From Fidelibacterota bacterium (lineage in GTDB: Bacteria > Fidelibacterota > Marinisomatia > Marinisomatales > TCS56), in contig JBDRBK010000115.1 of the NCBI GenBank assembly GCA_043822705.1, forward strand, positions 49,993-113,992: DNA of 64,000 nucleotides, given 5' to 3'. Of this stretch, positions 18,747 through 54,639 are shown piece after piece. Each line of letters begins with the position of its first letter. The stretch's first letter is position 1. The notes under the pieces are model-generated. The model ran no database searches and was not told where the DNA came from. It saw only the letters and a program-made list of their open reading frames with translations. Both the position numbers and the translations under genes were made by a program.

Positions 18747-18771
18747 CAGAGCAATGCTGCAGTTCAAATTC

Positions 18772-18853
18772 GACCCCTTCAGGGTCATGGCCTCTGTGCA
18801 GAGGTACTATCGGTTGCGCCGATAGTTATTCATATTCAATCCCTGCAGGATTG
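18772..18853. repeat. REP/BIME-like multi-hairpin repeat, copy A (first ~82 bp only)
   Basis: Aligns with 18892-18973 and 19521-19602. Hairpins: GACCC..GGGTC, CCTCTGTGCAGAGG, TATCGG....CCGATA, CAATCCC...GGATTG. Confidence 0.8.
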
Positions 18854-18891
18854 TTCTCTGGTACAATGCAAAGTAGGTTTTGCTGGAGTTT

Positions 18892-19070
18892 GACCCCTTC
18901 CAGGTCAGAGCCTCTGTGCAGAGGCCCTATCGGCCACACCGATAGTTATTCATATTCAATCCCTCCGGGATTGCTCAAACGGTGTTATACCGATTTCGAA
19001 AACTCCGAAGGAGTTTAATGTGAATAGACGGTTAAATTTGAATAATACGACAACCCCGGAGGGGTTGAAT
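18892..19070. repeat. REP/BIME-like multi-hairpin repeat, copy B (full length), ending just before the RAYT start codon
   Basis: ~180 bp direct repeat of 19521-19700. Contains six short hairpins, the last being CAACCCCGGAGGGGTTG. Confidence 0.85.
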
Positions 19071-19075
19071 AAATA

Positions 19076-19522
19076 GTGTCAACATATACGCAAATATATT
19101 ATCATATCATTTTTTCGACTAAAAACAGGGTGCCCTGCCTTAAAGAAGCGGGCCGTGATGAATTATTCAAATATATCTGGGGTATTGTTAAAAATAAGGA
19201 TTGCCACCTGTATCGAATTAATGGCGTTGAGGACCACGTTCATATATTGATTAGCCTGAAACCAGCGGTTGCCCTCGCTGATTTGGTTAAAGATATTAAG
19301 GTAGCAACCTCAATTTGGATAAAAGAACGGAATATTTTTCCACGATTCGAAGGCTGGCAGGGGGGATATGCCGCCTTTACATATGCGGACAAAGATAAAA
19401 ACACCGTAATCAATTATATAAAAAACCAGGTTGAACATCATCGGAAGAGAAGTTTCCGCGAAGAGGTCGAAGCTCTGTTAAAAGAACATGGTGTTGATGT
19501 TGATGAAAGGTTTTTGGTTTGA
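19076..19522 (+). CDS. IS200/IS605-like Y1 (HUH) transposase of the REP-associated (RAYT) type
   Basis: 148 aa with YHIIFSTKNR, the HUH motif HVHILIS, and a C-terminal Y in INYIKNQVEHH. Flanked by structured repeats. Confidence 0.8.
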   Translation: MSTYTQIYYHIIFSTKNRVPCLKEAGRDELFKYIWGIVKNKDCHLYRINGVEDHVHILISLKPAVALADLVKDIKVATSIWIKERNIFPRFEGWQGGYAAFTYADKDKNTVINYIKNQVEHHRKRSFREEVEALLKEHGVDVDERFLV

Positions 19523-19700
19523 CCCATTCAGGGTCATGGTCTCTGTGCAGAGGCGATATCGGTTGTGCCGATAGTTATCCAGGTTCAATCCCTTCGGAAT
19601 TGCTCAAACGGTGTGATACCAATTTCGAAAACTCCGCAGGAGTTTTATGTGAATAGACGATCAGATTGGAAAGAAACGGCAATCCCGGAGGGGTTGAATT
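19521..19700. repeat. REP/BIME-like multi-hairpin repeat, copy C, ending just before the ygfK start codon
   Basis: Direct repeat of copy B. Most differences fall in hairpin loops or are paired, with a few stem mismatches. Confidence 0.85.
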
Positions 19701-19705
19701 AAACC

Positions 19706-22700
19706 ATGTCCGATAAATTATTCACCTGCCCGATCGATCGACTGCTGAGCTGGATACTGGCCGAGGAGCGTCAGGGATCAATCTTTGGCATTGATAAGAA
19801 CCTGTTTTTTATGCCTGCCGCCACCGATCCGTTCCGGATGCGGCGTTACGACCAGCTTCTGGAAACACCTGTCGGTGTGGCGGCGGGTCCCCACACCCAG
19901 CTTTCCCAGAATATTATATCCGCCTGGCTCACCGGCGCCCGCTACATCGAACTGAAAACCGTCCAGACATTGGATAAAATCGAGGTCGCCAAACCCTGCA
20001 TCGATATGCAGGACGAAGGCTACAACTGCGAATGGTCCCAGGAATTGAAACTGCGCCGGTCCTTCGACCAGTACCTGGATGCCTGGATTCTGATTCATGT
20101 TCTCCGCCGGCATTTCGGCTGGGAGTTCGGTATCGGTCCCGGTGTCATCTTCAACATGAGCGTGGGTTATGATCTGGCCGGTATTAAAAACGCCAATGTC
20201 CAGGAATTCCTCGATTTAATGGAGAACTGCCAGCCATTGCTGGAAGCCAAACTGGAACAGATTGAAACAATCTATCCGGCCACTCATGACTTAGGAATAG
20301 CGTCCCGTCTGTCCGATAACGTGACCCTGTCCACCATGCATGGCTGTCCACCAGATGAGATCGAGCGAATCGCCCGCTATTTGATTGAAGAACGCCGCCT
20401 GCACACGGCGGTGAAACTGAATCCGACTCTGCTGGGACCCGACAATCTGCGGCAAATCCTCACCAGCAATCTGGGCTTCAGGAATATCACCGTTCCCGAT
20501 CAGGCTTTCGAGCACGATCTGAAATATGATCAGGCTCTCACAATTATTCGCAATTTGCAAGCCAGCGCCGGAAAAGCGGGGGTGGAATTCGGACTGAAAC
20601 TCACCAACACACTGGAAGTACTGAATCAGAAGGAATTGTTTCCCGGTAGCGAGGAGCAGGCGTACCTGAGTGGTCGCGCGCTCCATCCCCTGAGTGTCAA
20701 CTTGGCTGCTAAACTGCAGACTGAATTTGATGGCGCTTTGGATTTATCGTTTTGCGCCGGTGCCGACTGTTTTAATATCGCTGATCTCGTTGCCTGCGGA
20801 CTGGCCCCGGTTACCACCTGCTCCGACCTGCTCAAGCCGGGAGGCTATGGCCGGTTGAAACAGTATATCGGCCAACTTGCGGATCGATTCTCCAAGCGGT
20901 CAGCGGTCAGCGTTGAAGATTTTATCAATATTACAGCCGGGCATCCCGGCTCAACCAGTCAGGCCGCGCTGAAGAATCTACAGGCTTACGCCAAAGTTGT
21001 GCTCACTAATGATAGCTACCAGCGGGAATCACCGTTCTACCCGTCGGTGAAAACCCTCAAGCCGCTTCCGGTATTCGATTGCATTTCCGCCCCCTGCACC
21101 GCGGCCTGCGCTACCGATCAGGGTATCCCGGAATACATGTACCACACCGCCAAAAGCGATTTCGATCGGGCTTATGCCACAATTTTAAAGACCAACCCGT
21201 TGCCAGGTATTACCGGTTATGTCTGCGATCACCTGTGCCAGACCAAATGCACCCGCATCAACTACGACCGGCCGCTGCTGATCCGGGAAATCAAACGTTT
21301 TGTCACCGAACACGGTCAGACCGGGAATACACCTATAAAGATCACCTCGAATGGCAAACAAGTAGCCGTTATCGGTGGAGGACCATCGGGATTGTCATGT
21401 GCCTATTTCCTGGCATTGCAGGGTTTTGCAGTGGAAATATTTGAAGCCAAGGCCAACCTGGGCGGCATGGTTTCCGGGGCGATTCCACGGTTTCGACTGG
21501 GCGATGACAGCGTTCAAAATGATCTCAATCTAATCACCGGACTGGGCGTGCAAATCCATTACAGCCGTACTATTGATCAGGACGAATTCCAGCGCCTGCA
21601 GACCGAATATGACTATGTCTATCTGGGTCTGGGGGCCCAGGCCAGCCGCAAACTGAATATCCCCGGTGAAGACCACAACCGGGTTTTGGATCCCCTGAAA
21701 TTTTTGTCCGCCGTGAAGAATGGTATATCCCTGCCGATGGGGTCGGAAGTAATTATTATCGGCGGTGGTAACACCGCCATGGATGCCGCCCGCACCTCGT
21801 TACGATTGGTCGGTGAAGGGGGAACAGTGACCATCGTTTATCGGCGCACCATCGACCAGATGCCGGCGGACTGGGAAGAGGTGGCGGCCGCCCAAGCAGA
21901 GGGGATTGCCATCCACGAGTTGCTGGCGCCGGTTTTTATTGAAGAACAGGGCGGTAAGTTGGTACTGATCGTACGCCGCATACGACTGGGTGCCAAAGAC
22001 AGCAGCGGACGTCCCCGGCCGGTGGATATTCCCGGCAGCGATTTCGCATTGGACTGTGATTACCTGATTCCCGCCGTGGGGCAGTCGGTGGCAGTGGATT
22101 TTCTGGATGATGCCGATTTGCGGGTTGATCCGCGGACCAAGGCTACCAGCCGGCCAAAGGTATATGCCGGTGGTGACGCCGTCCGGGGGGCCTATACCAT
22201 CATCGCCGCCGTGGGCGACGGCCAGCGCGCCGCTGCTGCAATTGGTGAACAGGTCACGGGGACTACGGTTAATTTTGATACGGGCCTGGCCGGAAAAGCG
22301 TCGGCGGAAGTACAAGCTCAGCGCTTTGCTACGCGCGATTATGGTTCGATAACCAGCGGATTTGAACCGCACCACGATCGTCCGGTCAAGACATTGCTGA
22401 CGTCGGAACAGGCCTGGACCGAGGCCGCCCGCTGTCTGTACTGTGACGAATTTTGCGATATCTGCGTTACCGTCTGCCCCAACCGCGCCAACCTGGCTTA
22501 TCCGGTGGATAAGATCGCCATTGATATTCCGATTGTTACGCAATTAGGCGGCAAAACCGCAATCAAAGCAGGCAGCCGCTTGATAGTGGATCAGCCGACC
22601 CAGATCGCCAATATTGCCGATTTCTGTAACGAATGCGGCAACTGTACGACGTTTTGTCCCACCGCCGGTGCCCCCTGGCGGGACAAACCGCGCATCTGCC

Positions 22701-25217: not shown

Positions 25218-25651
25218 CCATCGAATTTATCTTGAATGACCGGCGCGTTGCAGTTGAAGCGGAGCCGGGCGCCAACCTGTTGGAAATGCTGCGGGAGCGG
25301 GGTTTGTTCAGCGTCAAGCATGGCTGCGATCACGGCGAATGCGGCGCTTGCACCGTGCTGCTGGACGAACGGGCCGTTAATGCCTGCCTGGTGCTGGCTT
25401 TTTCAGTGGCCGGGAAGAGGGTGGAGACGGTGGAGAAATTCAGCAGTCACGACCACTTGCACCCGCTGCAGGAAAAATTCATCGCCAGCGGGGCGATCCA
25501 GTGCGGTTTCTGCACGCCGGGGATGATCCTGGCGCTGGAAGCGCTACGGCGGGAGAAAGCGAATCCCACCGAAAGCGACGTCCGCGATGCCCTGGCCGGC
25601 AATCTCTGCCGTTGTACCGGCTACGTTAAACCGGTGGAGGCGGCCCAATGA
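25214..25651 (+). CDS. (2Fe-2S)-binding small subunit (set 2)
   Basis: CDHGECGACTV and QCGFCTPG...CRCTGY. Confidence 0.9.
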   Translation: MTIEFILNDRRVAVEAEPGANLLEMLRERGLFSVKHGCDHGECGACTVLLDERAVNACLVLAFSVAGKRVETVEKFSSHDHLHPLQEKFIASGAIQCGFCTPGMILALEALRREKANPTESDVRDALAGNLCRCTGYVKPVEAAQ

Positions 25652-27933
25652 AGGTGATCGGCCAACAGACCGCCCGCATCGACGGCCGTGCCCTGGCTAC
25701 CGGTCAGCCGGTATTCGCCGACGATATTGAATTAAAAAACGTGCTGCACTGTAAGGTGTTGCACAGCACCGTGGCGCATGCCCGGATCAAAAAAATTGAT
25801 GCCGGCCGCGCCCTGCGGCGGCTCGGGGTGGTGGCGGTCTATACGCATGCCGATTTTCCGCGGCATTATTACACCACCGCCGGTCAGGGGTATCCCGAAC
25901 CGGGTCCCCGGGATTACCGCATCCTGGACGACACCGTCCGCTACGTGGGTGACCGGGTGGCGTTGGTGGTGGCCGAATCGCTGGCCGCTGCCGAAGCTGC
26001 CTTGACGGCAATTGCCGTGGAATATGAAGAATTACCGGCGGCATTCGACCCGCGCGAAGCGCTGAACGGTAAGGTGGTAATCCATCCCGAGGCAGGCAAG
26101 ACCGGCATTCACGAAGTCGGCCGCAACGTTGCCGCCCACATCAGCGCCGAAGTTGGCGATGTGGAGGCGGCATTCAAGTCGGCACCCCACGTATTTGCCG
26201 GGGAATACAGTACGCCCTTCGTCCAGCAGGCCCATATCGAACCGCATATCTGCCTGAGCTGGCGCGACGAGCACAACCGGATCGTGATTCGGACCGCCAC
26301 CCAGGTACCCTTTCATGTGCGGCGGATCGTGGCCGAGGTTCTGAATATACCCGTGGGACAGGTGCGGGTGATCAAGCCCCGGATCGGCGGCGGCTTCGGC
26401 GGCAAACAGGAAATATTGAACGAGGAACTGGTGGCGGCGGTGACGCTGAAAACCGGTCGTCCGGCCCGGCTGGAATACACCCGGGAAGAGGAATTTTACG
26501 CCGCCCGCTGCCGGCACCCGCAGATCACCAATTTCCGGATCGCCGTGGATGACGACCACTGCATCCAGGCCATCGACCTGAAAATACTGGAAAACACCGG
26601 CGCCTATGGCGCCCATTCACTGACGGTGATGTCGGTGACGGCCCAGAAGACGCTGTCGCTGTATCGGGCACCCAATCTGCGGGTCCACGGCGATGCGGTC
26701 TACACCAACCTGCCGATCGCCGGGGCCTACCGTGGCTATGGCGCGCCCCAGGGTTTTTTCGGCCTGGAATCGCTGCTGGATGAGATTGCCGATCAATTGG
26801 GCATCGATCCGGTGGAATTTCGCCATAAGAATTATGTGCGGGTGGGCGACGACCTGCCGATTGCCGCCATTCTGGGCGAAGGCCGGGAGGGTTACCCGGC
26901 CCAGGTGCGCTCATCGGGATTGCGGGAGTGCCTGGAGGAAGGCAAAAAACTGATCGGCTGGGACAAACTGCGCAACGCCGCCAGGAGCGGTGCGATCCGG
27001 CGCGGCGTCGGCGTGGCGGCGGTGGGGCAGGGCAGCGGGATTCCCGGGATCGACATGGGTTCGGCCTTTATTAAAATGAACGAGGACGCCAGTTTCAACC
27101 TGCTGGTGGGCGCCACCGACCTGGGGACCGGCTCCGACACGGTGCTGGCCCAGATCGCCGCCGAGGAACTGGGCGTAGCGGTGAATAAAATCATTGTCTA
27201 CTCGTCGGACACCGACCACACCCCCTTCGATACCGGCGCCTATGCTTCCAGCACGACTTACATCTCCGGGGCGGCCGTCAAAAAAGCGGCGGCGGCGGTG
27301 AAACGGCAGATTCTGGAACTGGGTAAAAAGTTATTGTCCGTGGATCAGGCGGAAATCCGGGACGGGCAGGTAGTGGCCCCGGGTGGCGAGAGCATATCCT
27401 TTGGAGAAATCTGCACCAAAACCTTTTATACTGATGAGCAGACCCAGATCATGGCCACCGCCAGCCACTTGAGTTTCGATTCGCCCTCGCCCTACAACGC
27501 CACATTTGCCGATGTGAGCGTCGATACCGAAACCGGGCTGGTAACCGTGAACAAGGTGGTATCGGTGACTGACATCGGCCAGGTGATCAACCCGCAGATG
27601 GCGGAGGGGCAGACCGAAGGGGGCATCCCCCAGGCGTTGGGGATGGCGTTGACCGAATTCATGGTTTTCGACGATAAAGGCCGGCCGCGGAATACCGACT
27701 TCAACCGTTACCATATTTACACAGCCATCGATATGCCTGAGATCGTGGCCCGATTCATCCCTACCCACGAGCCCACCGGACCCTACGGCGCCAAGGCGGC
27801 GGCGGAGATACCGATCAATGGTCCCGCCCCGGCGGTGCTGAATGCGATTTACAATGCCTGCGGGGTGCGGATTCGGGAGCTGCCGGTCACGCCGGAGAAG
27901 GTGCTGGCGGGATTAGTGAGGAGTAATAAGTAA
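25648..27933 (+). CDS. XDH-family molybdopterin-binding large subunit (set 2, XdhD-like)
   Basis: RIDGRALATG, GGGFGGKQ, AYRGYGAPQ and a C-terminal ...ELPVTPEKVL. Confidence 0.9.
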   Translation: MKVIGQQTARIDGRALATGQPVFADDIELKNVLHCKVLHSTVAHARIKKIDAGRALRRLGVVAVYTHADFPRHYYTTAGQGYPEPGPRDYRILDDTVRYVGDRVALVVAESLAAAEAALTAIAVEYEELPAAFDPREALNGKVVIHPEAGKTGIHEVGRNVAAHISAEVGDVEAAFKSAPHVFAGEYSTPFVQQAHIEPHICLSWRDEHNRIVIRTATQVPFHVRRIVAEVLNIPVGQVRVIKPRIGGGFGGKQEILNEELVAAVTLKTGRPARLEYTREEEFYAARCRHPQITNFRIAVDDDHCIQAIDLKILENTGAYGAHSLTVMSVTAQKTLSLYRAPNLRVHGDAVYTNLPIAGAYRGYGAPQGFFGLESLLDEIADQLGIDPVEFRHKNYVRVGDDLPIAAILGEGREGYPAQVRSSGLRECLEEGKKLIGWDKLRNAARSGAIRRGVGVAAVGQGSGIPGIDMGSAFIKMNEDASFNLLVGATDLGTGSDTVLAQIAAEELGVAVNKIIVYSSDTDHTPFDTGAYASSTTYISGAAVKKAAAAVKRQILELGKKLLSVDQAEIRDGQVVAPGGESISFGEICTKTFYTDEQTQIMATASHLSFDSPSPYNATFADVSVDTETGLVTVNKVVSVTDIGQVINPQMAEGQTEGGIPQALGMALTEFMVFDDKGRPRNTDFNRYHIYTAIDMPEIVARFIPTHEPTGPYGAKAAAEIPINGPAPAVLNAIYNACGVRIRELPVTPEKVLAGLVRSNK

Positions 27934-28208
27934 TAGGTAATTAGTGAGCCTGCCTGCGCCAAGGCTTCGGCAGGTGAGAGCAGCTTAGCTGCTAAGTGAG
28001 AATGTCAGCCTGTGGCGGACTGGAGAGAATGCTTCGCTTAGTGAGGAACAACAAACTTGCTGTCATACTGAGCCTGCCTGTCAGGCGTAACGCAGTATAG
28101 ACTGATCGAAGTATGATTCAATAAAACACCCTTCCCCGCCTGCGTACCTCCGGCGGGCAGGGACCAGCTCAGGGTGACATTGTCTTAATGTATCTGGTTC
28201 GTCCAATA

Positions 28209-28276
28209 CCTGCGGGGTGCGCATCCGCGAGCTGCCGGTGACACCGGAGAAGGTGCTGAATGTCTTAATAAAATGA
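28209..28276 (+). pseudogene. Orphan relic of the last codons of an XDH-family large-subunit gene
   Basis: 28209-28258 matches 27857-27906 at 45/50 nt. It is in frame (CGVRIRELPVTPEKVL) and then runs into AT-rich codons and a TGA at 28274-28276. There is no upstream coding body. Confidence 0.75.
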
Positions 28277-28310
28277 AAAATACATTCATTTACTAAGGGG
28301 ATATTTTATT

Positions 28311-28838
28311 ATGAAATTAAGAATGACAGAGGATGAGTATTTTAGTGATTTAACTTGGATCGGTCTTATAGGAGCCATTGCTGGTGCAGTTGGTGGGGCC
28401 TACCTTTCTGGTAAAACACCATTAGAAGAAGAAATTGTTACAAATTATAATATTGAGCAGAAGGAATTGGAGAGAAAACAGAGGCTGCTTGAGCCAATAT
28501 TAGAATTGGAAAAACTAAAATCACATTCAAATGCTTTCAAGATTTATGTTGAATCAGTTGAACTATTTCTAAATGGATATTATCGAGCTTCATGCATATT
28601 CGCGGCTGCATTATTAGAACATATCCTGAAAAATAAATTTGGTCACGAAAAAGGATTTTCTGATTTAATTAACATTGCATACAATACGAGCCTACTATCA
28701 AAAAGTGATAGACATTTTCTAGATGGAATTAGAGAAGAAAGGAATTCATTAATTCACGATTTCTCTTATAATATAAATGAGGATGAGGCAAAGACACTAT
28801 TGTACCTGTCAGTAGCATTGATTAATAGATTATTATAG
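28311..28838 (+). CDS. Membrane-anchored HEPN-like (DUF4145-like) protein
   Basis: 175 aa with one TM helix (WIGLIGAIAGAVGGAYL), a coiled-coil stretch and a C-terminal helical domain carrying an Rx4H motif (RNSLIH). AT-rich codon usage is unlike the flanks. Confidence 0.6.
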   Translation: MKLRMTEDEYFSDLTWIGLIGAIAGAVGGAYLSGKTPLEEEIVTNYNIEQKELERKQRLLEPILELEKLKSHSNAFKIYVESVELFLNGYYRASCIFAAALLEHILKNKFGHEKGFSDLINIAYNTSLLSKSDRHFLDGIREERNSLIHDFSYNINEDEAKTLLYLSVALINRLL

Positions 28839-28852
28839 CTGTTAACTATATA

Positions 28853-29764
28853 ATGGTTAATAAACCAAAGAAACAGCACTATGTGGCCCGATCATACCTT
28901 AAAGGCTTTTCTAAAGAATATCTCAAACCAATGAGAAACCAAAATAATAATGAATTTTACTTATGGTACTATGATATTGAACGAAATGAATATAGAAAAC
29001 AACATATAAAGGAAGTTGCACAACAAAGATACTTCTATTCATGGATAACAGAAAATGGTACTCGTAATTATAGCTTAGAGGAACACCTTTCAGAAATTGA
29101 ATGCGCAATCTATCCACTAATTTGTGATATTAATACAGTATCAACGGGATTGCAAAGCAGGAAGCAAAAAACTGGTCAAGTTACAATATCTCAAAACGAA
29201 CGTGACTGGTTAATCGAGTATATTAGAATAATGATGGTTAGAGTACCATCAACAATTAATACGATTAGAGATTCGTTGATTGATGAGTTATCAGCATTTA
29301 CTCAAGAAAACGTTAACAGTTCAAGCGAACTCATAAAACATGATTCTCTAATGGTTGCATTTGAAATGGGAACAAAAGATAACAAATTTCTTGATATCCT
29401 TAGAGAACGTGAATTATGGGTGTTTTACCCAGCAGATCAACAAACAAGTTTTATAACTACTGATAGACCAGTCACACGATTTAATAAACTTAACCCAGAT
29501 GGAATAATCTACGACAATACCGAAATATATATACCACTTACTCAAAACTGTTTATTAATGGTGACCGGTGTCGAAAAAAATAAAAATCTTCTTCGATTCA
29601 CCTCAATAAACGATAGGAGTTTAATAAGACGGATGAATCGTTATCTTGCGTCTTTTGCCACTAAAATTGTAATTGGAAGAGATAAAACTTTGTTAATATC
29701 AATTGTGAAAAACCTACAGTTTGATAAACAACCTAAGTATATAGAAGGTAAGTATAAATTTTAG
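28853..29764 (+). CDS. DUF4238 domain protein
   Basis: N-terminal KKQHYVARSYLKGF (the family's HY.P..YL..F signature) and a central SFITTDRPV motif. It lies 14 nt after the upstream gene and is AT-rich. Confidence 0.7.
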   Translation: MVNKPKKQHYVARSYLKGFSKEYLKPMRNQNNNEFYLWYYDIERNEYRKQHIKEVAQQRYFYSWITENGTRNYSLEEHLSEIECAIYPLICDINTVSTGLQSRKQKTGQVTISQNERDWLIEYIRIMMVRVPSTINTIRDSLIDELSAFTQENVNSSSELIKHDSLMVAFEMGTKDNKFLDILRERELWVFYPADQQTSFITTDRPVTRFNKLNPDGIIYDNTEIYIPLTQNCLLMVTGVEKNKNLLRFTSINDRSLIRRMNRYLASFATKIVIGRDKTLLISIVKNLQFDKQPKYIEGKYKF

Positions 29765-29980
29765 ATTATCCATTTGTATGCAATAGTGACTACTATTCTT
29801 TGTATAGAGCAATTTCAAACCACTATAGAGAAACGGTTAAAACGGTTCTATCTGACTTGATGCATTTTTCTTCCAGATAAATCCATGTACTTGGAAATTC
29901 GGTGCCAAACTGATTGATAAAACGTGAATCGACCCACCCCGTGCCGATTACCGGGACACACCTACCAAGAGTGTTATATT

Positions 29981-30008
29981 GTAAGGGCACGATGCATCGT
30001 GCCCCTAC
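29981..30008. repeat. 28-bp near-perfect palindrome GTAAGGGCACGATGCATCGTGCCCCTAC heading tandem array 2
   Basis: One mismatch. The outer arms match the 527-556 palindrome, but the centre differs in a self-complementary way. Confidence 0.9.
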
Positions 30009-30050
30009 CTCCCAGGCCACATAGTGCTAACTGGAAAGGTGGGGAAATAC

Positions 30051-30426
30051 GTGCATTGGCCTGCTAAAACCTGTGTATAGGCCTACTAAAATGCGTGCAT
30101 GGGTCTGGTAAAGCACGCATATAGGCACGGTAAAGTGCGTGTATGGGTCTGGTAAAGCACGCATATGGGCATGGTAAAACGCGTGCACCGGCCAGGCAAA
30201 ACCCGCATATGGAACTGGTAAAGTGCGCGTATGATCACACTAAAACGCGCAGTCAGACCAATCGGAATGCACGGTCGGACCCCTCGGTACATGCGGTCGT
30301 ACCCCTCGGAATGCACGGTCAGACCCCTCGGAACGGTCGGTCAGACCCCCCGGAACGTGCGGTCAGACCCCCCGGAACGTGCGGTCAGACCCCTCGGTAC
30401 GGTCGGTCAGACCCACTGGAATACGT
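30051..30426. repeat. Tandem array 2: ~9 units of 22 bp (G[Y]RTATGGGYCTGGTAAARYRC type) followed by ~8 units of ~22 bp (GGTCAGACCCCTCGGAACGTGC type, some 18/26 bp)
   Basis: Read directly. Type A units start at 30051 + 22n (n=0-8), and type B units run from 30249/30273. Confidence 0.85.
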
Positions 30427-30625
30427 GGTTGGGGACAGGTGTTAGCCGTGGTGATGGATTTATTTTATGAGCACCAGCTTATTGGTCCGGGTGAAGCCGC
30501 TGCCGGTGCGCAGGCGGGGAAGCATGAGCCTGCCTGTGCGACGTAATCCGTCAGTGGGTGGCTGAAGGCGTATCGAAGCATGAGCCTGCTTGTCCGCCAC
30601 TCCCGCCCCGCCGTAACTTCCATCC

Positions 30626-32428
30626 ATGTCCACCGACCATATACGCAATTTTTGCATCATCGCCCATATCGATCACGGTAAGTCGACCCTGGCCGACCGC
30701 CTGCTGGAAGAGACCCACACGCTGACCAAAAAGGAGATGAAGGCCCAGGTGCTGGACAGCATGGACCTGGAGCGCGAGCGTGGCATAACGATCAAGAGCC
30801 ACCCGATCCAGATGCATTACCGCGACCGCGATAAACGTGAGTACGTCCTGAACCTGATCGACACGCCCGGACATGTCGATTTCAGCTATGAGGTCTCGCG
30901 CTCGCTGGCGGCCTGCGAAGGCGCCCTGCTGCTGGTGGACGCCGCCCAGGGGGTGGAGGCCCAGACGGTCAGTAACGCCTACCTGGCGATCGACAACGAC
31001 CTGGTGCTGATCCCGGTGATCAACAAGGTCGATCTGCCGGCGGCCCGGGTGTCCGAGGTGATCGAGCAGATCGTGGAACTGATCGGCTGTTCGGTCGCCG
31101 AAATTATCCAGATCAGCGCCAAGACCGGGCAGGGCACCGCCGATATCTTCCGGGCCGTAATCGACCGCATCCCGCCGCCGCCGGATCATTCCGCGGATCG
31201 GCCGCGGGCCCTGATCTTCGATTCGATGTATGACAACTACCGCGGGGCGATTCCCTACGTGCGGATCGTCGACGGGATCTTGAAACCCGGCCTGACGGCG
31301 AAATTCTTCGGCCATGATTTCACCTATGAAATCACCGAAGTCGGGCATTTCGTCCTGCGGCAGATTCCCTGCGCGGAACTGCGATCGGGCGACGTGGGCT
31401 ATCTGATCGCCAATATCCGCGAAGTCGGACATATCCTGCCCGGCGATACGATCACCACCCGCCAGAACCCGGCGCCGGCAAGGCTGCCGGGGTATAAGAA
31501 AATCAAACCGATGGTGTTTTCCGGGCTGTACCCTTCCGATGCCGACGACTACGACCAACTGCGCCAGGCCCTCGATAAGCTCAAACTCAACGATGCCTCG
31601 CTGGTCTATGAACCGGAAACCAGCGAAGCGCTGGGGTTCGGTTTCCGGGCCGGCTTTTTGGGGCTGCTGCACCTGGAGATCGTTCAGGAACGGCTGGAGC
31701 GGGAGTTCGACATCGATCTGGTCACGACCTCGCCCAATGTGCGCTATCAGGTCCTGGGAAAAGACGGCGACCTGTTAGAGGTCGATACACCGGCGAAAAT
31801 GCCGCCGGCCGGGCAGATCGAGGAAATTCGCGAACCGTTCGTAGATGCGGAAATCATCACCCCCAAGGAATTCATCGGCACGATCATGAAATTGTGCCAG
31901 AATCACCGCGGCACCTATAAGAACACCCATTATCTCTCGGCCGAGAAGGCCCAGGTGCACTACGATCTGCCGTTGGGCGAAATAATTTTCGACTTTTATG
32001 ATAAACTCAAATCGTCCACCCGCGGTTACGCGTCGTTCGACTACAACCTGACCGGCTACCGGGCGGGCGATCTGAAAAAGCTTGATATCCTGATCAATAA
32101 CGAACCGGTGGATGCGCTGTCGAGCATCTGCCATGCCGATGACGCCTACCACCGCGGCGTCGCCCTGACCTCGAAACTGAAGGAACTGATCCCGCGCCAG
32201 ATGTTCGATGTGCCGATCCAGGCCGGCATCGGCACCAGGATCATCTCGCGGGCCAACGTGCGTGCGCTCAAGAAGAATGTGACCGCCAAATGTTACGGTG
32301 GCGATATTTCCCGCAAACGTAAACTGTGGGAAAAGCAGAAAGAGGGTAAGAAGCGCATGAAACAGATCGGCCGGGTCGAAATTCCCCAGGAAGCGCTGCT
32401 GGCGGTGCTGCGCATCGACCGCGAGTAA
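30626..32428 (+). CDS. lepA: Translation elongation factor 4 (LepA)
   Basis: IRNFCIIAHIDHGKSTLADRLL, DTPGHVDF, NKVDL, and a C-terminal LepA-specific region. Confidence 0.95.
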   Translation: MSTDHIRNFCIIAHIDHGKSTLADRLLEETHTLTKKEMKAQVLDSMDLERERGITIKSHPIQMHYRDRDKREYVLNLIDTPGHVDFSYEVSRSLAACEGALLLVDAAQGVEAQTVSNAYLAIDNDLVLIPVINKVDLPAARVSEVIEQIVELIGCSVAEIIQISAKTGQGTADIFRAVIDRIPPPPDHSADRPRALIFDSMYDNYRGAIPYVRIVDGILKPGLTAKFFGHDFTYEITEVGHFVLRQIPCAELRSGDVGYLIANIREVGHILPGDTITTRQNPAPARLPGYKKIKPMVFSGLYPSDADDYDQLRQALDKLKLNDASLVYEPETSEALGFGFRAGFLGLLHLEIVQERLEREFDIDLVTTSPNVRYQVLGKDGDLLEVDTPAKMPPAGQIEEIREPFVDAEIITPKEFIGTIMKLCQNHRGTYKNTHYLSAEKAQVHYDLPLGEIIFDFYDKLKSSTRGYASFDYNLTGYRAGDLKKLDILINNEPVDALSSICHADDAYHRGVALTSKLKELIPRQMFDVPIQAGIGTRIISRANVRALKKNVTAKCYGGDISRKRKLWEKQKEGKKRMKQIGRVEIPQEALLAVLRIDRE

Positions 32429-53831: not shown

Positions 53832-54639
53832 GGTGATTATGCATTTTTCGGACCAAGTGTTGAATTCATTTGGTTATGCTGGAAATCATTAGAAAAATAA
53901 TAGCTGGGAAACAGTGTCCGAAATGTGGTCATAAAACGTTGTACGTACTTAAAGACAAGCGCTTCAAATGTAGTGGGTGCAGCCACAAATACAGTCCCAG
54001 TCCGATTGCGAAGGACCTCCAACTTCTTCATTACTTCAGCTTGGAAATTCCGGCCAATAAAGCATCCAAAGACCTTGGTTGGAGTTACCACAAGGTTAAA
54101 AACCACTATATGAATTACCGCCTGGATATTTTTGATTATCTGGTAGAGGAATATCGTAAACTGTCTGGTGAAATTGAATGTGATGAATCTTATTTTGGTG
54201 GACGAAGAAAGGGACCACGGGGACGTGGTTCTCGAGAGAAAGTAAAGGTATTCGGGATGTTGGAACGTCAGGGTAGAATACTCACCGCAATTGTTGATAA
54301 CGTCTCTGCCGAAACTCTTATGAATGAGATCAGACAACATGCTGAAAAAGGAAGTGTGTTTTACACTGATAAGTTTAAATCCTATAAATCTTTGAGATTT
54401 TACGGCAAACATCTCACAGTTGATCATGGGAAAGAATTTGGGAATGGAAGACGGCATATTAATGGACTTGAAGGCTTTTGGTCCTTTGCCAAAGAAAGAC
54501 TTTTGAAGTACCATGGAGTTAGTAAATCCTACTTCCATTTATACCTCAAAGAAATGGAATTCAGGTATAACTACAGAAAGGAAAATCTCTATCAAAAACT
54601 GGTCAATATTCACTTTGGTCCGAATTTTAACTAATTACC
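53832..54639 (+). mobile_element. IS1595-family insertion sequence (~808 bp) with imperfect terminal inverted repeats and an 8-bp target-site duplication TTGTTTTT
   Basis: TSD copies at 53824-53831 and 54640-54647. The left end is GGTGATTATGCATTTTTCGGACCAAGTG, and the reverse complement of the right end is GGTAATTAGTTAAAATTCGGACCAAAGTG. Confidence 0.8.
53876..54634 (+). CDS. IS1595-family (ISXO2-like DDE) transposase
   Basis: N-terminal zinc ribbon CPKCGHK...CSGCSHK, then IECDESYFGGRRKGPRGRG...VFGMLERQG...FYTDKFKSY...VDH. Confidence 0.85.
   Translation: MLEIIRKIIAGKQCPKCGHKTLYVLKDKRFKCSGCSHKYSPSPIAKDLQLLHYFSLEIPANKASKDLGWSYHKVKNHYMNYRLDIFDYLVEEYRKLSGEIECDESYFGGRRKGPRGRGSREKVKVFGMLERQGRILTAIVDNVSAETLMNEIRQHAEKGSVFYTDKFKSYKSLRFYGKHLTVDHGKEFGNGRRHINGLEGFWSFAKERLLKYHGVSKSYFHLYLKEMEFRYNYRKENLYQKLVNIHFGPNFN

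Follow-up and report, generated by a model that had tools for sequence, protein, structure and literature searches.

We identified two kinds of repeats lying side by side upstream of lepA in a 64,000-nucleotide stretch of DNA from a Fidelibacterota bacterium (contig JBDRBK010000115.1, positions 49,993 to 113,992; this whole stretch is hereafter called the window). A 28-bp palindrome (palindrome 2, 29981-30008) is followed there by a tandem array of 22-bp units (array 2). The reading that we favor, with a probability of about one half, is that the two are independent: a hairpin of the repetitive extragenic palindromic (REP) type beside a minisatellite that changes by whole-unit slippage. The palindrome, or head, is a further and possibly notably widespread GTAG-tagged REP, and the array is a further bacterial minisatellite. 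Both repeats are real, but they look like ordinary bacterial repeat DNA rather than a new system. An earlier note on this DNA had proposed that palindrome and array form one element family, of which a second palindrome and array (palindrome 1 and array 1) near the start of the window would be another member. This did not hold, because the hairpin is dispersed and normally occurs without an adjacent array; moreover, homology between the two arrays could not be demonstrated.

Array 2 starts 36 nt past palindrome 2 and is one continuous array of 18 units (30045 to ~30441), in a strict 22-bp register with 0% indels according to both Tandem Repeats Finder (TRF) and a repeat finder. Units 1-9 (30045-30242, + strand, 22 bp each) have the consensus AAACGCGTGTATGGGCCTGGTA (AArYGCGTGyATrGGyCTGGTA). 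Units 10-18 (30243-30441, + strand, 22 bp) continue in the same register with the consensus GAACGTGCGGTCAGACCCCTCG and a 9-bp palindromic core, GGTCAGACC; a core reading CGGTCnnACCC is conserved in units 10-17. In register, the two consensus sequences agree at 11/22 positions, the unit at 30243 is intermediate between the two types, and the last unit is degenerate. The units form a single graded array and not two, and the 18- and 26-bp variants described earlier resulted from mis-segmentation. Units diverge by 35-40% within the arrays. Along array 2, divergence follows a gradient and superperiods of 44/66 bp are detected, the 44-bp one reflecting the alternation of GYGCGYG and CRCGCRC between neighbors in units 1-9. 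In each of these nine units, purines and pyrimidines also alternate over 8-11 nt; there are 10 such runs of 8 nt or more, compared with 1.5 in shuffled sequences. The strongest A/T-versus-G/C harmonic of array 2 is 11.0 bp, and its TRF scores are 169-216, those of array 1 being 362-470. No array 2 units were found elsewhere in the 64-kb window.

The behavior of the array could be followed in a closer relative, present in two groundwater metagenome runs (X3 and X4), in which the flanking genes are ~92-93% identical to those of the window. Contigs from these runs match the window in two segments, 30055-30095 and 30307-30394, which are separated in the contigs by 13 nt. With 211 nt skipped and 13 inserted, the array of the relative is shorter by a net 198 bp, corresponding to precisely nine units of 22 bp. 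The remaining units of the relative read GGTATACCCCTTGGAACATGCG, and the 9-bp dyad GGTCAGACC is swapped for another dyad, GGTATACC. The 3' flank is kept over 30407-30517 and then diverges exactly at a second dispersed repeat of the window (described below). Run X4 also contains an array-1-like contig with units reading CATTCCGAAGCCTTGGGGAAT, as well as a palindrome 1 copy followed by sequence resembling the start of array 1, of which just 35 nt are visible and which is suggestive only. The contigs of X3 and X4 thus show that the arrays are passed on within the lineage and vary in steps of whole units, which is the behavior of variable-number tandem repeats (VNTRs). Random one-off slippage, the outcome against which the earlier note had set its proposal, is not borne out, as related arrays exist in this close relative.

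Array 2 thus consists of head-to-tail units in the 10-100-bp range in non-coding DNA, as minisatellites do, and its unit copy number varies between related strains, here in one relative population seen in two runs. Mycobacterial intergenic tandem repeats of the MIRU type are well-known bacterial examples. The likeness to bacterial minisatellites and VNTRs lies in the head-to-tail intergenic units, the higher-order periodicity, and the 9-unit change between populations. The array differs from them in that its unit equals about two helical turns, it has no indels despite strong unit divergence, and it is accompanied by a REP-type hairpin whose side and distance are fixed; in addition, two unrelated arrays have the same length.

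The array does not code for protein and is confined to this Marinimicrobia-like lineage. Translations of the open reading frames (ORFs) lying over the arrays (for array 2, the + strand ORFs in two frames and one of the two - strand ORFs; for array 1, all four ORFs) shared words with no protein in a 5.8-billion-sequence database. A coding repeat protein was rejected on these grounds and because 22 is not a multiple of 3. A known RNA family was rejected as well: Rfam gave no match for the array at gathering or E-value thresholds, the E-value matches over array 1 were noise (such as miRNA and snoRNA families), and RNA folding z-scores were just -1.1 and -2.3 relative to shuffles. No plasmid or phage sequence matched the array in blastn searches.

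A wider family, sought by scanning metagenomes for GGTCNGACC at 22-bp spacing, was also rejected, since such matches follow from the design of the search and not from homology. At least 120 contigs were found, and 92 of the 120 retrieved were 11-bp repeats, GGTCAGACCGG / GGTCTGACCCC, and some were plant DNA; the rest of the window's unit was found in none of the contigs retrieved. These 11-bp arrays (loci L126-L245, mostly from soil) are unrelated to the window's unit beyond the 9-bp core. At 10 of these loci, runs of opposite orientation abut and form long inverted arrays capable of folding into hairpins, often at gene starts or ends.

We then turn to the head. Palindrome 2, GTAAGGGCACGATGCATCGTGCCCCTAC (29981-30008), is a GTAG-tagged hairpin of the REP type with 14-nt arms, complementary at 13/14 positions with one A.C mismatch at stem position 4. 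Palindrome 1, GTAGGGGCACAGCATGCTGTGCCCCTAC (528-555), sits in perfect 15-nt arms (527-556) and scores as terminator-like on both strands; neither palindrome is assigned a strand, and both are intergenic. The pairing of 29981-30008 with a twin at 527-556 was borne out: a mismatch-tolerant scan found only these two copies in the 64-kb window, with 0 expected in shuffles. The likeness between the two loci is confined to the palindrome and an 'ATT' directly 5' of it.

A scan of one genome per species with the pattern GGGCAC-N4-12-GTGCCCCTAC revealed the base of the stem at no fewer than 120 loci, in more than 100 genomes of many phyla. The matches listed include Acidobacteriota, Chloroflexota, Nostocales, Desulfobacterota-type metagenome-assembled genomes (MAGs), Planctomycetota, Ignavibacteriota, KSB1, Omnitrophota, and others. 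The full GTA[A/G]GGGCAC...GTGCCC[C/T]TAC palindrome with a self-complementary center is present at at least 40 loci (40 of the 120 matches listed), some of which equal the window copies save one base. Indeed, GTAAGGGCACGATGCATCGTGCCCCTAC with a G at position 4 is found in MAG loci of Deltaproteobacteria/Proteobacteria (L025 and L030) and in a viral locus (L265). The earlier claim of a conserved structure with a variable center was supported, as the three distal stem pairs covary across 18 distinct 28-mers (A-U, G-C, C-G, and U-A types). Double-change cells numbered 18 compared with 4.6 in shuffles, and 0/500 shuffles reached that value. It should be noted that the proximal 10 bp of the stem are set by the search pattern, so their invariance is uninformative.

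The hairpin is also carried by phages. The pattern GTAGGGGCAC-N8-GTGCCCCTAC, with 20 specified bases, was found in 18 viral contigs (L252-L269), while three control palindromes (two of the same composition with a permuted stem, and one with the same stem but the GTAG tag changed to CATC) yielded 0 viral matches each. Because the controls gave no viral matches, the real hairpin is special and not a by-product of GC-rich palindromes generally. Of 60 copies, 39 (65%) have an ORF end within 60 nt, compared with 37% of control positions. In several phage contigs, the hairpin follows a stop codon by 4-16 nt, and a Shine-Dalgarno sequence with a start codon comes 13-25 nt later. No common neighbor gene was found among the 120 genome loci listed or the 18 viral loci, and copies elsewhere are mostly without an adjacent tandem array.

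Judged from these patterns, the head, a dispersed hairpin shared across phyla and carried by phages, can be assigned by its form to the GTAG-tagged REP palindromes. By the published definition (PMC3733652, PMC2817692), a GTAG-REP is an extragenic palindrome of 20-40 bp that has a GT(A/G)G head and sub-variants with compensatory changes. The present head, 28 bp long and extragenic, is a stem-loop palindrome with 13-14 paired positions, a CTAC tail, and a location mostly just past gene ends, and its sub-variants keep pairing via compensatory changes. Both heads bear the GT(A/G)G-type tag at the foot of the stem, reading GTAG...CTAC at 528-555 and GTAA...CTAC at 29981-30008. Families with long stems (12-13 bp) and gene-flanking REP arrays have been described, and the described families are spread unevenly across phyla, orders, and species (PMC3733652). 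In contrast, the identical stem base of the head spans many phyla and viral contigs. REPs usually reach >100 copies per genome; 2 head copies are present in the 64 kb of the window, with more, differently flanked, in the related metagenome runs X1-X4.

No palindrome-flanked RAYT (REP-associated tyrosine transposase) was found in the 64-kb window, where the sole Y1 transposase (19076-19522) scores 76 bits as an IS200 TnpA and 26 bits as a RayT, for which the cut-off is 80. The locus departs from bacterial interspersed mosaic elements (BIMEs) and other REP clusters, since it holds one palindrome and the array units are not REP copies; the several regularly spaced, alternating REPs of a BIME are absent from the locus as a whole. 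A literature search with the palindrome sequence returned only unrelated eukaryotic papers, apparently via primer sequences, and the palindrome does not appear in the text or supplements of the GTAG-REP catalogue. The earlier statement that the repeats cannot be assigned to REP, CRISPR, MITE (miniature inverted-repeat transposable element), or iteron classes was therefore right for the array, which fits no CRISPR, MITE, or classical iteron, but not for the head, which has the form of a GTAG-REP. Of note, an Atribacterota contig (L039, 5560-5730) contains four differently stemmed GTAG hairpins within 170 bp, forming a REP cluster, and in a Sphingobacteriales contig (L007, 720-860) one arm of a GTAGGGGCACCC hairpin is amplified as a 14-bp tandem repeat. 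These two loci show that such hairpins are themselves able to give rise to tandem duplication nearby.

Array 1 (579-974, + strand) comprises ~18.5 units of 21 bp with the consensus CAACCCGAAGCTTTGGGGAAC, an invariant core GGGAACCnnCCC, a 105-bp superperiod, and no indels, and it includes runs of identical adjacent units. The motif ACCC[C/T]TCGG(G)AAC, on which an evolutionary relationship between the arrays had been based, is indeed present in array 2 units but occurs, as ACCCTTCGGGAACC, in just 2/18 units of array 1. We compared the arrays by rotation-tolerant local alignment of the consensus sequences and of individual units against composition-preserving shuffles. The best local score between the consensus sequences was 10, with a shuffle mean of 10.0 (p = 0.57), and the best single unit gave p = 0.09 before correction for multiple tests. 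Homology of the two arrays was therefore not supported, the similarity not exceeding chance level. The main A/T-versus-G/C harmonic of array 1, 5.25 bp, is likewise not shared with array 2.

What the two arrays do have in common is their architecture: a 21/22-bp period equal to two helical turns, ~18 units, a total of ~396 bp, and no indels. The hairpin lies on the same side of both arrays, at 23 nt (array 1) and 36 nt (array 2), and the next start codon follows after 177 and 184 nt, respectively. Under random placement in the 5.3 kb of intergenic DNA, both palindromes would fall within 60 bp of an array end with P ~0.002, for n = 2. The best explanation is that array 1 is analogous to array 2, a second and independently derived product of the same process. 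Both arrays had also been said to neighbor low-GC orphan genes; an AT-rich island does abut palindrome 2, but the orphan gene beside array 1 (1152-1466) has a GC content of 0.54-0.61.

If the two repeats are independent, the head would most likely act as a stem-loop in single-stranded DNA or RNA, with a putative role as a terminator, in the protection of mRNA ends, or as the target of an HUH nuclease. The array may gain and lose whole units by slipped-strand mispairing or unequal recombination, events in which the register would stay exact. A stable hairpin probably favors such slippage, for example through replication stalling and template switching, and this would explain why the array lies on the same side of both palindromes.

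Several observations weigh against this view. No indel is seen in ~400 bp despite 35-40% unit divergence, and the arrays are of near-equal length (~396 bp) with similar spacings to the hairpin (23 and 36 nt) and to the start codon (177 and 184 nt). The absence of indels, together with the matched lengths and spacings, hints at a phasing or size constraint and not at neutral drift. Variation within units is concentrated, with conserved cores flanked by 5-9 variable positions, and the palindromic core remains palindromic in the relative with another sequence (GGTCAGACC vs GGTATACC). Moreover, the array persisted across ~7-8% coding divergence. Most hairpin copies in other phyla have no adjacent array, so the hairpin alone does not generate arrays, and the causal link that we infer from hairpin to slippage has n = 2 behind it.

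Other known repeat systems resemble the array only in part. With CRISPR, it shares a regular period, partly palindromic repeats, and an intergenic site, but it has no unique spacers: the units abut, and their start-to-start spacing equals the 22-bp unit length. The 21-22-bp units are also shorter than CRISPR repeats, given as 24-48 bp (PMC3733652), and no cas domain was found in the neighbors or in the 38 ORFs scanned, which are part of the window's ORFs. The array lacks the terminal inverted repeats of a MITE, neither its units nor the array as a whole recur in the window, and it has no matches among database ORFs, plasmids, or phages. The likeness to iterons is closer, as array 2 has direct repeats in the 17-22-bp range with helical phasing (22-bp period, 0 indels), a conserved core with variable positions, and AT-rich DNA nearby. 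Iterons of plasmids and phages number 3-9 units, as in the 22-bp iterons of the R6K gamma origin. Array 2 differs from them in having 18 units on a chromosome between housekeeping genes, and neither an adjacent initiator (rep) gene nor a plasmid or phage replicon context was found, the neighbors being xdh-like, DUF4145, DUF4238, and lepA genes. CsrB and RsmZ are sponge RNAs that present GGA motifs. Like them, array 2 has ~18 short repeats, many with GGA, between a possible promoter and a hairpin; unlike them, its GGA context is not A(N)GGA, half of the array is without GGA, and there is no Rfam match.

The gene order at the locus is an xdh-like molybdopterin subunit gene (25648-27933), an AT-rich island, palindrome 2, array 2, a 184-nt spacer, and lepA (elongation factor 4; 30626-32428, + strand). 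The LepA protein is closest to Marinimicrobia proteins, its best relatives sharing 84-87% identity; an identical LepA is not on record. The island (28288-29950, + strand) spans 1.7 kb with a GC content of ~0.30-0.33 and contains a DUF4145 gene (28311-28838) and a DUF4238 gene (28853-29764), neither with an NCBIfam match. The DUF4238 protein has a weak PADLOC match to a candidate defence model, DUF4238-Pers (E = 0.0016). The left part of the island (28472-29391) has no coverage in runs X1-X4, and in X1 and X2 175 nt (29397-29571) are matched exactly. The sequences AGCACTATGTGGCC / GGCCACATAGTGCT (28875-28888 and 30015-30028) form a perfect 14-nt inverted repeat that links codons 8-12 of DUF4238 to the spacer separating the hairpin from array 2; ~0.015 such repeats would be expected in the 2.8-kb region.

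A second REP-like dispersed element, CTTCCCCGCCTGCGTACCTCCGGCGG..., lies at 28131-28179 (+ strand), with an inverted copy at 30497-30540 (- strand; repeat part 30497-30522) that is fused to a TGAGCCTGCCTG motif. This repeat (CTTCCCCGCCTGCGYACC..., often joined to TGAGCCTGCCTG) forms an inverted pair that brackets the island, hairpin, and array; copies of the TGAGCCTGCCTG motif lie at 27944, 28068, 30524, and 30580. Because it has high depth (17-21x) and several different flanks in X3 and X4, the second repeat is a REP-like family of its own in the lineage. The last 60-110 nt of the xdh-like gene are present as a diverged duplicate (28200-28262 vs 27850-27907, ~85% identity in the core) that ends in an alternative stop codon directly before the island and looks like a trace left by a past rearrangement or recombination event.

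A comparison of the xdh-lepA interval with related genomes had been suggested. In three relatives with 84-87% LepA identity, the downstream order is conserved (lepA, Rce1-like, zinc-ribbon protein, lgt, etc.). Upstream of lepA, they vary. L246 (8250-9900) and L249 (9300-10000) have 1-3 small orphan ORFs there, with GC down to 0.32 in L246, and L251 (8900-10000) has a DUF1684 gene directly upstream and no cargo. Within this group, the lepA 5' junction is thus a site of variation. In ~20 kb from each of the three, neither a tandem array nor a GTAG palindrome was found, upstream of lepA included.

Elsewhere in the window, the Y1 transposase gene mentioned above (IS200 type, 148 aa, 19076-19522) has on either side a direct copy of a ~195-bp element made of several hairpins (18876-19075 and 19506-19706), and part of a third copy lies at 18752-18870. 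Compensatory changes distinguish the hairpins of the copies from one another, and a search of Rfam at E <= 1 gave no match for the element. The window also contains a DDE transposase gene of the IS1595 family at 53870-54634 (PF12762, E = 4e-34).

Against this background, other explanations of the locus can be weighed. An unlikely but still credible one is that the array is phased protein-binding or architectural DNA, iteron- or BIME-like, in which each unit would offer one site and the sites, two helical turns apart, would lie on one side of the helix; it would be coated by a dimeric DNA-binding or nucleoid protein, or it would be curved or supercoil-absorbing DNA upstream of lepA. REPs and BIMEs are reported binding sites of several proteins, and roles in supercoiling have been hypothesized (PMC2817692, PMC3733652). 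The 21- and 22-bp periods without indels agree with this, as do the conserved cores, among them the 9-bp dyad GGTCAGACC with its counterpart GGTATACC in the relative; a hairpin is impossible with a 4-bp stem and a loop of 0-1 nt, which makes a duplex dyad site more natural. The A/T patches every 11.0 bp in array 2, the 8-11-nt purine-pyrimidine tracts of units 1-9, and the end of both arrays ~180 bp before a start codon also agree with it. Nevertheless, the cores of the two arrays are unrelated, so two different proteins would be needed, and no DNA-binding or initiator gene is adjacent. The 5.25-bp harmonic of array 1 cancels curvature, lepA is expressed in relatives that have no array, and the array resembles no origin of a plasmid or phage. 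Quite improbable is a bolder version in which hairpin and phased array would form one module: a structure-specific protein, for example an HUH/Y1-type nuclease, would read the hairpin, and it or its partners would load onto ~18 phased sites of fixed total length (~396 bp), while the GTAGGGGCAC...GTGCCCCTAC hairpin would independently be a horizontally spreading micro-element of many phyla and phages. If true, this would be a chromosomal 'hairpin plus iterons' site with a layout comparable to that of rolling-circle origins.

We also doubt that the array is transcribed into a repetitive non-coding RNA, such as a CsrB/RsmZ-like GGA sponge, with the hairpin as 5' stabilizer (+ strand) or terminator (- strand). 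A sigma-70-like promoter match (GGGACA-16-TATATT with TG; 29953-29980, + strand; a consensus match only) ends exactly at the first base of palindrome 2, but the number of promoter matches in the region does not exceed the background (2 found vs 1.2 expected). The array 1 hairpin is terminator-like in both directions, and in phage contigs the hairpin is located in the short gaps that separate genes of transcription units; at array 2, the search for terminator-like sites was negative. GGA on the + strand reaches 6.1 per 100 nt in array 1 and 4.0 in units 10-18, compared with 2.1 in the whole window, yet units 1-9 are nearly devoid of it and the A(N)GGA context is absent on that strand. Furthermore, Rfam gave no match, including the CsrB/Rsm families, folding z-scores are weak, no RNA run contains the stretch, and a motif scan found no CsrA-like ORF in the window. 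Equally doubtful is the idea, close to the integration hotspot of the earlier note, that hairpin and array form a composite mobile or recombinogenic unit that marks or makes insertion sites for foreign DNA such as the island. In its favor, the island abuts the hairpin, inverted repeats (28131-28156 and 30497-30522) and direct TGAGCCTGCCTG copies bracket the whole, the diverged xdh 3'-end duplicate (28200-28262) resembles a rearrangement scar, and two relatives carry different low-GC orphan cargo upstream of lepA while a third has a different neighbor gene. The variability upstream of lepA therefore stands, but these same relatives have neither hairpin nor array there, so neither is needed for it. 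No integrase, tRNA gene, or RAYT lies at the locus (no tRNA gene was found in the 64-kb window), the Y1 transposase at 19076-19522 being an IS200 TnpA with another flanking repeat, and the bracketing repeat is itself a dispersed REP-like element in many contexts. A contig joining 28082 to 30566, considered as a relative lacking the island, was rejected as ambiguous, since both ends lie in the dispersed repeat and the left flank is not that of the window. Finally, an assembly artefact or chance feature is highly improbable. Tandem repeats are prone to mis-assembly and the source genome itself is absent from the indexed runs (at most 10% of the sequence words in any run), but segments of the array and its 3' flank recur in independent contigs of two groundwater runs, 0 palindrome matches are expected in shuffles, and the TRF scores are those given above for the two arrays.

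On the reading of an independent hairpin beside a minisatellite, the ORFs over the arrays (e.g., 30143-30445 and 541-1002) are spurious and should not be annotated as genes, and array 2 provides a ready VNTR marker for strain typing in an uncultured lineage. An exact stem common to distant phyla and viral contigs is unusual for REPs and suggests a common recognizing factor or horizontal spread. If the common period class, length, absence of indels, and position of the arrays were to hold genome-wide, they would indicate a DNA structure constrained in size or phase, and not junk.

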